From positions 1 to 29,435 of the forward strand of contig JBMFKQ010000021.1 in NCBI GenBank assembly GCA_049972095.1: a stretch of DNA of 29,435 nt, given 5' to 3'. This stretch comes from Elusimicrobiales bacterium. GTDB lineage: Bacteria > Elusimicrobiota > Elusimicrobia > Elusimicrobiales > UBA9959. Position numbers: made by a program. Below are positions 18,001-24,000 of the stretch, one piece after another (the first letter of the stretch is position 1; the number at the start of each line of letters is the position of its first letter).

Positions 18001-21000
18001 AAACTATTGAAAGGACACCTTGTGATCTGGTTCTCATAGGGACACCAATAGATCTTGCATTGCACCTTAAGTTTAACAAACCCTCAATGAGGATAACATA
18101 TTATCTCAAAGAAAGAACATCTCCAGCACTTAAAGAGATAATAGAAGGTGTATTGAAGGAAAAAGCAAAGGCTTTAAGGGAGGTAAAATGACAATAAGGC
18201 CAGTTCTTAAACTCAAAAAGCTTCAAGATATGGGCATATCTAAGGGCTCAATGGTGCTTGTAAGGGTTGATTATAATGTGCCGATAAAAGATGGAAGGGT
18301 CAGTGATGATACAAGAATAAGAGAAACTGAGAAGACAATAAAATATCTTCTCACACGAGATGCAAAAATAGTTTTAATATCCCATCTTGGAAGGCCAAAG
18401 GGAAAGTTTGATCCAAAGTATAGCCTTAAATCCCTTAGGGAGGATGTGGAAAGGATAATGGCTGCAAAAACCCATTTTGTTGAGGATTGTATAGGTCCGG
18501 AGGTTGAAAAGGCAAAATCAAGGCTTGGGATAGGTGAGATACTTCTCTGTGAAAACCTAAGGTTTCATCCAGAGGAGGAAGAAAATGATGAGGGCTTTGC
18601 AAGAGAGCTTGCTAAGGGATGTGATTATTTTGTTCAGGATGCCTTTGGTGCAATACACAGGGCTCATGCCTCAACAACTGCTATTACGAAATATCTTCCA
18701 TGCTGTATAGGATTTCTGCTTCAAAAGGAGCTTGAGTATCTTGAAAAAATAATGACAAACCCATCAAAACCATTTGTTGCTGTCATAGGTGGTGCAAAGG
18801 TCAGCGATAAGATAGATGTCCTTATGAGTTTGCTTGATAGAGTTGATACACTTATAATTGGTGGAGCAATGGCTTATACATTTCTAAAAGCCCAGGATGT
18901 GAATGTTGGTAATTCTGTTGTTGAAAGTGATAAGATAGATGAGGCAAAAAAAATAGTTCTAAAAGCATTTAAAAATGGTGTTGAGCTTATTCTTCCTGCT
19001 GATCATCTTGTCGTTAAAGAGATTAAGGATGATGCCCAAACACAAACCACACAGTCAATGGCAATACCTAATGGATGGATAGGTGTGGATATTGGTGAAA
19101 GGAGTATATCTATTTTTAGTGAGAAGATACTTTCGGCAAAGACGATATTTTGGAACGGACCTCTTGGAATATTTGAGATAGACAGGTTTGCAAAAGGAAC
19201 TATTGCTCTTGCAAAAGCAGTTGCTGAGGCAACAAAGAACGGTGCTGTGAGTGTGCTTGGTGGTGGTGATACTTTAAGTGCCCTAAAAAAATCCGGTGTT
19301 AAGTCTGAGGAGATATCACATTGCTCAACAGGTGGGGGTGCAAGCCTTGAGTTTGTTGAGGGTAAGATTTTACCAGGACTTGAGGCACTTAGCAGATAAG
19401 GAGGTTTTGGATGTTTAGTTTTTTTCTCATTATTCATGTAATTATATGTTTTCTACTTATCATTTCTATACTTCTTTTCCAGACAAGTAAAGGTTCAGCA
19501 CTTAGTATGTTTGGTGGAGGAGGTGATTCTCTTTTTTCATCTCCAAGCGGAAGCTCATTCATAAAGAAATTTACTCTATATCTTGCGATTGCCTTTGCAG
19601 TTAATTCAGTTATTTTAACTCTGCTTTATCCTACAAGACACAGGTCTGTTCTTTATGATTCTCCGCCCCCTCCTGTGTCTAGTGAAAAAAAATAGATAAG
19701 GAATGGACTTTTTAAAGGCTGTTTCAGCGTTATTTTTTCTTCTTACAAATGCTGTTTTTGTTCTTATAGAGTTTGCAATAGTTAGAGTAAGAAAAACAAG
19801 AATAGAAGAATTTGCACAGAATGAGAATAATATATTTGCAAGAACCTCTCTTGATATAATAAATAATATCAACTCATATCTTGCATCAATTCAGCTTGGT
19901 ATAACTGCATCAAGTATAGGGCTTGGGTGGATTGCGCAGCCATATGTGGCTTTTGTTATTAGCAGAGCTATTCCTGATTTTTCTATATTCTACTTAAAGA
20001 TATCATCCTATTCAATCTCTCTTTTAATTTCATTTTTTACGGTAACATTTTTTCATATAGTTTTTGGTGAGCAGGTTCCAAAGTATATCGCGATATCATC
20101 TGCTGAAAAGATAACACTTGTTTTTTCAATTCCTCTCAAGATGTTTTATAAAGCAACCTATTATCCAATGCTTTTAATAAACAAAACATCCGAATTTTTT
20201 TCATCATTTTTAGTCTCAAAGATATCAGATGATACATCTCATTCAGAGGATGAGATAAAATTGATACTTTCAAAATCTGAGGAGTTTGGTCGTATTTCAC
20301 TTCACAGATTAATGATGTTTGAACATCTTTTTGATTTTGGCAAGACCTCTGTCAAAGAGGTTATGGTTCCTGTAGATAGGATTGTTGCCTTGAAAAAAAG
20401 CATAAGTTTTGATGATTTTTTAGATACTATAAGAAAATTCAAGTTTTCAAGGTATCCTGTGATCGATGAGAATTCTAATTATTTAGGTTATGTGCATGTT
20501 AAGGATGTTATTATAAACCTACCTATATCAAGATGTGTTGAAAGATTCAATCTGCTTGACTATATTAGACCTATTGTTAGGGTAGGAGAAAAGGAAATGA
20601 TAGAGAGGGTTTTGAGAATTGTCCAGGAAACAAATCAGCCGATCCTTCTTGTAGAAAATGATAAAAAAGAGATAACAGGTATAATAACTGTTGAGGATAT
20701 AATAGAGGATATTACCGGAGAGATAAGGGATGAGTTTGAAAAAAAATCTGCTGTAAGGCTTGATGAGATTTTCTGTGTTGAGGGAAGTGTTGTTGATATT
20801 AAATCATCCGATAGATTTTCAGCTATAAATGAGATGATAGATAAGCTTTATTCATCCGGTTTTATAGCTTTAAGGGAAGAGATATCAAAAAGGATTATAA
20901 AAAGAGAAAAAGAACTTTCTACTGCCATAGGTCATCAAATTGCTGTTCCACATGCAAGAATAGAGGGACTTAAAAGTGCTATTATTTCTGTTGGAATAAG

Positions 21001-24000
21001 CAAAAATGGAATAGATTTTTTAGCCCCTGATTTAAAACCCGTTAAGGTTATTTTTCTAATACTATCTCCCTATCATGAACCATCATTACAGCTTGCAATA
21101 CTTTCAAAGATCTCAAGGCTTGCGATGAATATCACACTGAGAAAAAAGCTTTTTAAGGTGTCAGATGCCTATAAGATAAAAGAGATACTTAGTGTTTTTG
21201 AGGACAGCATTCCTGTGGATTAAAAACTCATCTACATATTTGGCTATATTTGGAAGAATCTGTGATAAGCATTCTTTTAGCGTTGTAGTTGAAATTTGAT
21301 GTTTAAAATAGGTAAAATTTTATTATAGCGCGGGTGGCGGAATTGGTAGACGCGTACGTTTGAGGGGCGTATGCCTTACGGCATAAGGGTTCGAGTCCCT
21401 TCCCGCGCAAGATTTATGTGGTGTTATGAAAAAAGATATATTAAAAAGATACTAAGGCTTTGTCAATATTACGCCACACCACTCTACATATATCACATTC
21501 CAACCCTTTTGAGAGAGATTTCAAAATACAAAGATGTTTTTAAAGATAAACCTGTAGATATTTTATATGCATTTAAGGCTAATTCAAATAGAGAGATATG
21601 TTCTGTTATAAAAAAACAAGGATTGGGGGCTGATGTTGTAAGTGGTGGTGAGCTTGAGCTTGCGCTTGAACTTGGATTTGACAATATATCCTTTTCAGGT
21701 GTTGGGAAAACTGATGATGAGATAACTCTTGCTGTTAAAAATAGAATATCCTTCATAAACATAGAATCATATGAGGAATTTTTAAATCTAAGAAAGATTG
21801 CCCAAAGATTGAGAATAAAAACAGCCATATCTGTAAGATTAAATCCTAATATTAATGTTAACACTCATAGATATATAAGAACAGCCACAAAGTATTCAAA
21901 ATTTGGTGTGGATTTCAAAACAGCAAAGGAGATTTATCTAAAGGCTTCCAAATCAAGGTATATTGAAATAAAAGCAGTTCACTTTCATTTAGGCTCGCAA
22001 ATATTTGATGAGTCATATTATGCAAAAGCCCTTAAAAAAACAGTTGATTTTATCAGATCGCTTTGTGTTTACGGGATAAATATAAAAAGGATAGATATAG
22101 GTGGTGGATGGGGAGTTAAAGAGGGGAAGGAATGCACAGGGCATAATAAGATTTTTGATATTATAAAACATTATATCCCTGAGTTTTCTTTTATACTTGA
22201 GCCTGGAAGGAGTATAGTTGCTTCATGCGGGATTCTTGCACTCAAGGTGCTTTATAGAAAAAAGATAGGAAAGAGATATATCATTATTGTGGATGGTGGA
22301 ATGAATGTATTTGTAAGGCCTATTCTTTATAATGTTTTTCATCCTGTTTTTAACCTTGTTCAAAGAAGAGGTGAGAGGGTTATATGTGATATTGTAGGAC
22401 CTTTATGCGAAAGTTCTGATTTTATATCAAAGTCTGTTAAGATTACCCTTCCTCAAAGAAATGATATCCTTGCCGTTGTATCAGCGGGGGCTTATGGATA
22501 TCCTATGTCAAATGAGTATAATCTAAGAAAAAAGCCCTTAGAAAAAGTCATCTATCATTGACATGTCAAGTGAATTATGTCCATTTGTGTCAAGGGAGTT
22601 TAGATTTTTGAGAGAAATATCTAATTTTTTATAATATATTTGGAGGGAAAATGGATTTTTTTATCTTTCTCGTTTCTTTTTTTCTATATGCTCATGACGA
22701 GGGCGGAATGGTTAAGTTTCCTCAAGGATATCCTCTAAGTAGTAGAATATCAGTTGATGAAAAGTTATCTATACTATATGAATCTCCTCTTTGTGAAAAA
22801 ATTGAGTTTGATTTTAATGTTGTTGCTGTTAATGGTAAGGTGACTAACGGTAAGATTTCTTTTGAGATGTGGATTCCACAAAATCCTTCTCCTAAGAGTG
22901 ATATGAAGAATGATGTAATTTATACTATCATAAAACCATCAAGGTATAAAATCTATCCTAATGGAAGATTCTGGGCAAGATTTGATGTCAATGGTAGAGT
23001 AAGTCAGTTTAAATTTGTAGTTGTAAACGAAGGTGTTGACGAAAAAAGTTTTGGAATAGATATATATGAGGCGAATGTTTCAAAAATAGATAAAAAAAAA
23101 AGACAAGCAGAAGAGATTGTAGACGATAGTAATTTAAATCTTGCTGATCCCCTTCCATTTAAGCTTATTAGAAGAGATCAATGGAAAGCAAATCCCCCAA
23201 CAGCAAGCTATATAAAACACACACCTAAAAAAATAACCATTCATCATACAGCAGGAGGCTATCCACTTAAATATGAGGATGCAATAACAGAGATAAAAGT
23301 TATTCAGGAGTATCATCAGGAAGGAAGGGGATGGATAGACATAGGATATCATTTTTTGATTGATCCGCTTGGAGATATATTTGAGGGAAGACCAATACTT
23401 AGTGTTGGTGCCCATGTTGCAAAACAGAATACTGACAATATTGGAATATCTATTATGGGAAACTATCATCCGCCTCTAAACAATGAGATAACTGAAAAAA
23501 CGATTTCAGCCATAATAACCCTAATAAGGTTTATAAAAGACAAATACAACATATCTAAGGCATACTTTTATGCCCATAGAGATCTTGCAGCTACTAACTG
23601 TCCAGGAGATAATATTTATGCCAAGATGAATTATTTAAAAACAAAGATATTTGACGAAGAAAATGAAAATACTATGGCAGTTGAGGTGGATTTGGGAGAT
23701 AATGAGATTAATAGGAAGATTATTAATAGCATATCTGAGTGGTAGATCATAGATTTTCAAAGATCTCAGAGGTCTTATTTTGCAGATTTTCGAAAGAAAA
23801 GATTTCATTAAACCTTTTTTTATTATCCATACCAATCCTCTTAATTCTTTCAAAGTTAAGGTTTTTTTCTATCTTATCTGCAAGCTCTATGAATGATTCT
23901 TTTGGATATATGTAGTCAGGCTCAAAAAGCTCAACCAAACATCCTGCATTGCTTGAGATAACTGCTCTTTGAGAGTTCATCCATTCAATCGCAACCCTTG

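Follow-up and report, generated by a model that had tools for sequence, protein, structure and literature searches.

A CNNM/CorB-family transporter with a PTS EIIA domain in place of CorC in Elusimicrobiales: a putative Mg2+ exporter under proposed phosphorelay control

The window that we analyzed, the 29,435-nucleotide contig JBMFKQ010000021.1 of Elusimicrobiales bacterium assembly GCA_049972095.1, encodes a CNNM/CorB-family protein that ends in an EIIA domain of the phosphotransferase system (PTS), raising the question of whether ion export could be controlled directly by the PTS phosphorelay. Pfam placed three families in this 506-aa protein: CNNM (residues 9 to 198; E = 5.5e-36; 124.4 bits versus a cutoff of 28.4), CBS (residues 217 to 270 plus a second CBS stretch), and PTS_EIIA_2 (residues 363 to 497; E = 6.2e-30; 104.5 bits versus a cutoff of 27). 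This domain order, in one open frame, is the one given in the survey's finding, which had also placed EIIA where CorC usually lies. The Pfam scan detected no CorC_HlyC in the protein or elsewhere in this genome (G000), while all 18 of the nearest full-length nonfusion relatives scanned carry it. Since the same three Pfam families occurred in 120/120 homologues (those listed, of 1,014), the fusion is not an assembly artifact. Among NCBIfam models, the best score was to the polyamine exporter PaeA (NF052568; 91.6 bits, far under the cutoff of 500); fruA matched residues 364 to 483 (E = 1e-23; 83.6 bits, under its cutoff of 103.5), and the PtsN equivalog TIGR01419 scored 45.5 bits, short of its cutoff of 138.7. 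Foldseek returned 7m1t (MtCorB) as the best match of the protein. The nearest named relatives among the matches listed include Bacillales CNNMs at 31 to 35% identity, and the protein is a candidate member of the MpfA/YhdP subfamily (MpfA of S. aureus and YhdP of B. subtilis), which it resembles. The AF2 full-chain model had a mean pLDDT of 88.1 and a pTM of 0.51; the tail-only model, made with no control model or contact list, had a pTM of 0.76 and a pLDDT of 91.6. Features are collected in Table 1.

Table 1. Layout of the CNNM-EIIA gene and its predicted domains and sites (positions in the window)
Feature	Position	Strand	Basis
Whole gene, CNNM/CorB-family transporter with C-terminal EIIA, 506 aa	19703..21223	+	One open frame; Pfam
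Membrane (CNNM/DUF21) domain, residues about 1-175	19703..20227	+	Pfam CNNM; alignment to 7m1t; helices in model
Acidic helical bundle (AHB), residues 181-212, helix 2 with fusion-specific R202-L203...E207	20243..20338	+	Signature counts; column conservation
CBS pair, residues 213-338	20339..20716	+	Mg-ATP-site residues kept; CBS2 D-E loop (319-320) lost; 7cfh superposition
Acidic linker G339-E-I-R-D-E344 into EIIA	20717..20758	+	Common to ordinary CNNMs
EIIA, Fru/Mtl/Ntr class, closest to EIIA-Ntr, residues 353-503	20759..21211	+	Pfam; 4gqx superposition
Arg401-Glu402, active-site pair	20903..20908	+	Kept in 89/91 and 88/91
His417 codon CAT, predicted phospho-acceptor	20951..20953	+	Aligned to P-H His of PtsN
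Gln463 at position of PtsN's second active-site His	21089..21091	+	Alignment to PtsN

The predicted phospho-site reads A414-V-P-H417-A-R419, with His417 presumably at the phospho-acceptor position. Retention of this His within an A-x-P-H motif had been proposed for the fusion and held across the family, with H417 in 149/149 close and 88/91 diverse members; the latter are full-length members picked by EIIA-profile match, a choice that favors intact sites, and three have lost the His. Across these proteins of 25 to 35% identity, H417 (88), R401 (89), E402 (88), and R419 (88 of 91) were the four best-kept EIIA columns (median column, 44%). The second active-site His position is Gln in 146/149 close members, while the diverse set has Gln in 55, His in 33, and other residues in 3; our literature search found no paper on the role of this second His. 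The closest solved relatives of the domain are EIIA-Ntr proteins (4gqx, 151/151 residues superposed; Z = 21.5; root mean square deviation [rmsd], 1.9). SLC4 cytoplasmic domains also resemble the tail model (7x1g, Z = 15.2; 1hyn, Z = 13.7), and none of the best 50 structure matches was a solved chain spanning both CBS and EIIA. Judging from these alignments, the predicted phospho-site of the fusion EIIA is intact and selectively kept.

The membrane domain retains G122-E123-x-x-P126-K127, which matches the MtCorB pi-helix motif in TM3 (G110/E111/P114/K115); G122, E123, and P126 are present in 149/149 close members, and position 127 is K or R. By sequence alignment, two of the five MtCorB Mg2+ ligands are identical here (G110 and E111), and the others are changed (S21 to N16, S25 to V20, and S71 to I67, the last alignment-uncertain). 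CorC-tailed relatives share the changed residues (N16 in 141/155 and V20 in 154/155) along with E123 (155/155). The Mg-ATP-site residues F248, S249, R250, I327, T329, and D332 are as in MtCorB, G326 is also kept, and MtCorB T207 is V222; the tail model superposed on 7cfh over 161 residues (rmsd, 1.8; Z = 19.2). Two parts of the protein set the fusions apart from nonfusion relatives: R202 followed by L or F at position 203 of the AHB (57/68 fusions versus 1/155 relatives) and the CBS2 D-E loop (present in 1/68 versus 144/155). Column conservation was 0.84 in the AHB versus 0.64 in the membrane domain. The AHB is reported to be the moving part between transporter states and CBS2 the site of CorC action (PMC8242095). 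The sequence comparison thus indicates that the AHB and the CBS2 loop were remodeled together with the swap of CorC for EIIA. Covariation between EIIA and the AHB or linker was considered and rejected: mean-field direct coupling analysis (392 rows, effective 209; 295 columns) put pairs involving the AHB or linker close to the active face of EIIA, but we set this signal aside because a swap null that keeps phylogeny largely reproduced the excess (0.034 versus 0.026 for all rows; 0.0253 versus 0.0246 for CNNM rows only).

Recurrence of the fusion in six other families of the class had been noted. It proved wider, with 48/121 class genomes (this one included) in 10 families, and the family is also found outside Elusimicrobia, in 27/301 Planctomycetota genomes and in Myxococcota and spirochaetes. 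Within a sample of the phylum, 33/91 same-class genomes carried it (32 full length and 1 cut by a contig end) versus 0/109 genomes of other classes; a search of the phylum of G577, run with no positive control, gave 0/251. In a metagenome scan, none of the matches listed, all ordinary CNNMs, extended into the tail past query residue 216. Trees required one change for the fusion, with a support of 74 (27 without the signature columns; 94 in the rooted CBS tree), and the membrane domain alone required two; a single origin of the CNNM-EIIA fusion is therefore favored but weakly supported.

In planctomycetes, named species of Gemmata and Planctomicrobium among them, the same AHB-helix/CBS/EIIA tail is found on a CPA2 antiporter that resembles YbaL. 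These proteins share the YbaL core and TrkA_N with the YbaL family (NF007950; 513.7 bits versus a cutoff of 700), but differ in having some 300 additional residues, which form the tail. The active-site columns are kept here too (H417 in 120, R401 in 120, E402 in 119, and R419 in 113 of 120 copies). Transfer of the whole tail from the CNNM fusion to the CPA2 antiporter is indicated by the phylogenetic comparison (AU P = 1.5e-6) and is new here. Since the tail moved whole, it would be a unit that acts independently of the CNNM membrane domain. A weak test for a third host, covering seven matches of 610 to 2,000 aa, found none. Occurrence on both hosts suggests that the tail is a movable switch that couples ion export to the carbon and energy state of the cell. 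A fuller version, which we hold tentatively and at slightly less than even odds, is that the tail is a two-input gate (Mg-ATP via CBS and PTS phosphorylation via His417) with a single origin on a CNNM, where it displaced CorC; from there it would have spread among Elusimicrobia, Planctomycetota, Myxococcota, and spirochaetes and been passed to a CPA2 K+/H+ antiporter.

The genome supplies the upstream relay. HPr, EI, and HPrK had been placed on contig C4 and are there, HPr with His15 and Ser46 and EI with its His191 motif; HPrK was named by sequence, without a family scan. The fusion is the sole CNNM of the genome, which beside it encodes CorA; MgtE was not found there. EIIA-Man, the mannose-type PTS's own EIIA, and a second EIIA are also encoded, and no Fru/Mtl-class EIIC was found in this 96.5% complete genome. 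EI was present in 47/48 fusion genomes, but this co-occurrence is uninformative because 115/121 class genomes have EI. The fusion gene sits outside the hpf-hprK-rapZ cluster of C4, and no PTS genes were among 70 neighbor proteins scanned at 31 loci. In two f7 loci, mgtC lies three genes downstream. A glycolysis link by cotranscription with gap-pgk was discarded, as the fusion gene keeps the same-strand order in G000, G154, and G060 but is convergent in G086, G054, and G170 and sits elsewhere in other families; a promoter scan was at chance level (31 versus 26.3).

Taken together, these features point to a protein that probably exports Mg2+, with gating by both Mg-ATP and HPr-dependent phosphorylation (probability of roughly 0.55). 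It would work as a homodimer, a secondary transporter of the CNNM/CorB family that most likely serves the cell for Mg2+ export, with CorA for import, and its CBS pair would bind Mg-ATP as in other CorB proteins. His417 would receive a phosphoryl group from phosphoenolpyruvate (PEP) by way of EI and His15 of HPr. Since no EIIB is attached, EIIA would be a dead-end acceptor whose phosphorylation state reports PEP/pyruvate and sugar uptake. EIIA may pack on the CBS pair and the remodeled AHB helix, shifting the AHB/CBS rearrangement that gates transport. Unphosphorylated PtsN is reported to inhibit the K+/H+ antiporter YcgO through the CorC domain of YcgO (PMC11808508), and by analogy the unphosphorylated form here more likely restrains export, a direction that is a guess. 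Phosphorylation of EIIA by HPr, the gating that results, Mg2+ as the substrate, and this direction are what we infer from the sequence comparisons.

The same PTS-linked switch might act on another substrate, such as a polyamine (as in PaeA), Co2+, Mn2+, or another cation. The differences from MtCorB at three of its five Mg2+ ligands, the top NCBIfam match to PaeA, and the presence of the tail, which is then not Mg specific, on a K+-type antiporter all lean this way. However, ordinary CorC-tailed relatives share these membrane residues and also score best to PaeA, making that score generic; the pi-helix residues required in TtCorB are kept, and Ala at its Ser/Asn ligands raised transport (PMC8242095). 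With mgtC near two loci and no other CNNM in the genome, we consider a non-Mg2+ substrate unlikely, at about one chance in six. Slightly less likely still is an outward signal, in which the transporter senses Mg2+ or ATP and its conformation sets HPr access to His417, so that it would tune the PTS, rather than be tuned by it, by acting as a phosphate sink or an anchor for HPr. Site conservation shows contact with the relay and not its direction, and Gln463 could slow exchange, judging from work on EIIA-Glc. Yet a single membrane EIIA is a small sink next to EIIA-Man and the second EIIA, the graft onto another transporter fits transport control better, and the precedents LacS and YcgO run from PTS to transporter.

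An EIIA that is no longer phosphorylated and has a structural or ligand-binding role as a cap, comparable to the cytoplasmic EIIA-fold domain of SLC4/Band 3, would account for the SLC4 matches to the tail model, the three members without His417, and the frequent Gln at the second His. It is nonetheless improbable given that H417, R401, E402, and R419 head the EIIA columns and are kept in the CPA2 host as well. Least probable by far is that the fusion simply serves as PtsN, or passes phosphate to a sugar EIIB as a relay, while tethered to the membrane. In G000, and in those fusion-bearing genomes of f1, f2, f5, f6, and f7 in which both were located, EI has no stand-alone EIIA beside it, but crown genomes without the fusion likewise lack one there. 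Canonical ptsN beside EI is kept in 5/5 fusion-bearing f10 and f3 genomes, which rules out PtsN replacement, and the relay reading faces the absence of a detected Fru/Mtl-class EIIC in G000 and a mannose-type PTS with its own EIIA.

Compared with prokaryotic CNNM/CorB proteins (TC 1.A.112; MtCorB 7m1t, TpCorC 7cfh, and S. aureus MpfA), the fusion is alike in membrane domain, AHB, CBS pair, pi-helix G-E-x-x-P-K, and Mg-ATP site, and G326 matches the essential Gly326 position of MpfA. It differs in having EIIA for CorC_HlyC, no CBS2 D-E loop, and an R-L-hydrophobic rather than Glu-rich AHB helix 2; the three differing Mg2+ ligands are shared with its nearest CorC-tailed relatives. SLC4/Band 3 likewise has an EIIA-like fold on a transporter but is eukaryotic, at 14 to 15% identity, and its cytoplasmic domain is not known to be phosphorylatable, whereas the phospho-site is kept here. 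The action of PtsN on YcgO offers a like EIIA fold and phospho-site, a cation exporter as target, and CorC as the reported PtsN contact (PMC11808508). In contrast to that CPA1 antiporter, on which PtsN acts in trans, EIIA is here covalent in the place of CorC, its second His is mostly Gln, and the host is CNNM or CPA2. LacS, likewise a transporter outside the PTS, bears a fused EIIA that HPr phosphorylates, and a 2023 review describes it as the sole bacterial transporter under direct phosphorylation control (PMC10710835); it joins a Glc-class EIIA to a sugar transporter, whereas here the EIIA is of the Fru/Ntr class, follows a CBS pair, and belongs to a cation transporter. Our literature search, which did not reach two key PTS reviews, found no paper describing the CNNM-EIIA fusion.

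This natural exchange of CorC for EIIA, with matching AHB and CBS2 changes, offers a direct handle in one His and a soluble 320-residue tail, and the CPA2 version is testable in culture because it is present in named planctomycete species. If the proposed gating is true, this protein would be the first bacterial Mg2+ exporter under direct control of a phosphorelay, and two cation-transporter families would join LacS as directly phosphorylation controlled (compare PMC10710835). The fusion would then amount to the PtsN-CorC contact made permanent by covalent linkage, with the implication that free EIIA-Ntr may dock on ordinary CorC tails.

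The gene under study encodes a CNNM/CorB-type transporter with a C-terminal PTS EIIA domain, and no Pfam match to CorC_HlyC, the usual C-terminal domain of CorB proteins, was found in its 506 residues. CNNM, CBS, and PTS_EIIA_2 occurred together in all 120 homologues among the matches listed (of 1,014), so the reading frame is not a mis-join; the fusion is real, and it is widespread. Since CorC_HlyC was present in 18 of the 18 nearest full-length non-fusion proteins scanned, "replaced," as the survey had put it for EIIA in the place of CorC, is the right word. In an AF2 model of the full chain, the parts folded confidently (pLDDT, 88.1; pTM, 0.51). 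The model of residues 181 to 506 matched the TpCorC AHB-CBS fragment (7cfh; Z, 19.2; 161 residues; rmsd, 1.8) and EIIA-Ntr (4gqx; Z, 21.5; 151/151 residues; rmsd, 1.9). The tail (acidic helical bundle [AHB] helix, CBS pair, and EIIA) reached a pTM of 0.76 when modelled alone, in a run without a control or contact list; this value suggests that EIIA packs in a defined manner against CBS/AHB.

Coordinates of the fusion and of other features discussed
Feature	Location	Strand	Remark
CNNM-EIIA fusion gene	19703-21223	+	single 506-aa frame
CNNM domain	residues 9-198		Pfam
CBS			present (Pfam)
PTS_EIIA_2 domain	residues 363-497		Pfam
CPA2/YbaL-TrkA_N-CBS-EIIA antiporters	L237:3854-6502; L238:3187-5886; L239:2495-5236		planctomycetes
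452-aa protein	16833-18191		between gap and pgk
tRNA-Leu(GAG) gene	21328-21409		
Mechanical lysA ORF	21371-22561		
654-aa gene and short EIIC	G000:C4:13360-15926		host genome
Stand-alone EIIA locus	G000:C1:23609-26106 (= L032:5610-8107)		host genome
Short EIIA fusions	L265:3026-3700; L267:2890-3594		225-235 aa

A total of 48 of 121 genomes in the class sample (host counted), from 10 families, had a full-length match, as did 43 of its 91 high-quality genomes. A phylum sample had the fusion in 33 of its 91 same-class genomes, with one copy truncated at a contig end, and in 0 of 109 genomes from other classes. Recurrence within class Elusimicrobia, put by the survey at six other families, is borne out; the fusion also occurs outside Elusimicrobiota. 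A GTDB scan gave at least two Planctomycetota records (L057 and L059), and searching 50% representatives with a profile yielded ~40 full-length fusion clusters. Most of the 30 clusters looked up carry no taxon; those named were Elusimicrobia, Planctomycetota (5 clusters), Myxococcales (1), and Treponema/Rectinemataceae (1). The phylum of the L057 genome held 28 full-length fusion genes in 27 of 301 genomes, with partial matches in 2 further genomes, and that of a Polyangiaceae genome had the fusion in 2 of 251.

The exchange of CorC for EIIA was accompanied by remodelling of the transporter part. In a tree of the EIIA-less part, after removal of short or off-length rows (7 fusions and 19 non-fusion), one branch parted 68 fusions from 155 non-fusion neighbours with modest support (74; 27 without signature columns). 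R202 followed by L/F203 in AHB helix 2 occurred in 57/68 fusions versus 1/155 relatives, where Glu is usual, and the CBS2 D-E loop in 1/68 versus 144/155. According to PMC8242095, CorC probably contacts CBS2, and it is the AHB that rearranges upon Mg-ATP loss. Mg-ATP-site residues F248, S249, R250, I327, T329, and D332 are retained; T207 of MtCorB is V222 here. A Gly required by MpfA, according to PMC5122736, is also retained. Covariation between EIIA and AHB/linker did not exceed the phylogeny null.

In alignments with PtsN proteins of solved structure, H417 falls on the P-H histidine, the acceptor there, and is the predicted phospho-acceptor. H417, R401, E402, and R419 are invariant across 149 close homologues and are the top four EIIA columns among 91 distinct diverse members (88 to 89 of 91; median column, 44%), a set picked by EIIA profile and biased toward intact sites; three members have lost the His at 417. 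The second active-site His position is Gln463 (Q in 55 and H in 33 of the 91).

Three planctomycete genomes matched the tail alone, in 882- to 913-aa proteins composed of a YbaL-type CPA2 antiporter, TrkA_N, a CBS pair, and EIIA. A search with this CPA2 tail returned 205 matches; of 120 among the matches listed, some of them from Gemmata, Urbifossiella, and Planctomicrobium, 117 had all four families, and the other 3 were shorter, without the exchanger domain. H417 and R401 were present in 120/120 and Gln463 in 112/120 of those listed, and the S-R and T-x-E-D ATP motifs are retained. The tail starts with a helix ending L-x-L-E/D-N, with an invariant Arg one position away from R202. With CorC-tailed proteins as the outgroup of a tree (47 rows, 141 columns, LG+G4), CPA2 tails nested with the fusions L057, L059, and P0143 (SH-aLRT, 100), and the topology uniting CNNM fusions to their exclusion was rejected (AU P = 1.5e-6). 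The tail was therefore transferred as a unit from a CNNM to a CPA2 antiporter.

As the survey had it, HPr, EI, and HPrK lie on host contig C4, together with hpf, rapZ, and mannose-type EIIA/B/C/D (hpf, hprK, rapZ, EIIA, and EIIB identified from sequences); HPr retains His15/Ser46 and EI its His motif. No Fru/Mtl-class EIIC was found in the host genome, so the fused EIIA is without an evident sugar partner. The mannose-type EIIC is short (202 aa; weak Pfam match), and the 654-aa gene within its cluster is presumably glycoside hydrolase 57-like.

No PTS gene occurred among 70 neighbour proteins (picked from ~115 candidates) scanned from 31 loci, and operon ptsN accompanied the fusion in 5/5 f10/f3 genomes checked. 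The gap-pgk-secG context is limited to three f1 genomes; the 452-aa protein there (71 to 86% identity in f1 relatives; weak cobW/GTPase Pfam match only) presumably resembles cyclic 2,3-diphosphoglycerate synthetase-like proteins. Downstream, the mechanical lysA ORF begins within the tRNA-Leu gene, and the true start probably lies further on. In two f7 loci (L047 and L048), hemE, hemY, and mgtC (scanned in L048) follow the fusion gene on the same strand. Immediately upstream of it lie purL, same strand, in four planctomycete loci (L248, L249, L252, and L253) and a Ca-type P-ATPase gene in L243.

A second EIIA-transporter link exists in the same lineage: a stand-alone EIIA immediately precedes an APC permease gene and def in six of nine class loci checked (the host's and L257 to L264) and adjoins def in the other three. 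The one permease scanned has a Usp-like tail; the host EIIA keeps the P-H His, and its R-E pair is absent. In L265 and L267, a large membrane-protein gene lies downstream of a gene in which EIIA is fused to a short N-terminal domain, presumably DNA-binding-like.

Among the papers listed by literature searches, none described the CNNM-EIIA fusion, in agreement with the survey, or the CPA2-tail fusion, and the CNNM-EIIA fusion is apparently unstudied. Both parts are already named in JGI labels. Two main PTS reviews reportedly list EIIA domains fused to antiporters, and either form may already be tabulated there.

We favour, at a probability of roughly 55%, a predicted Mg2+ exporter whose tail would read and integrate two inputs, Mg-ATP and HPr-dependent phosphorylation of His417. 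Precedents are YcgO, inhibited by unphospho-PtsN through its CorC domain (PMC11808508), and LacS, controlled by a fused EIIA-Glc (PMC10710835). The fusion is the sole CNNM in the host genome (96.5% complete), which also encodes CorA and in which neither MgtE nor CorC_HlyC was found. Against Mg2+ export, only G110 and E111 of the five MtCorB Mg2+ ligands are identical, and the best NCBIfam match is PaeA, sub-threshold. CorC-tailed relatives show the same ligand changes, and residues required for TtCorB transport (PMC8242095) are retained. The neighbour scan, which gave no PTS gene, counts against the two-input mechanism; nearly all genomes of the class encode EI, so that its presence beside the fusion does not discriminate. 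The fusion is a CNNM/CorB form with a portable, predicted PTS-linked tail.
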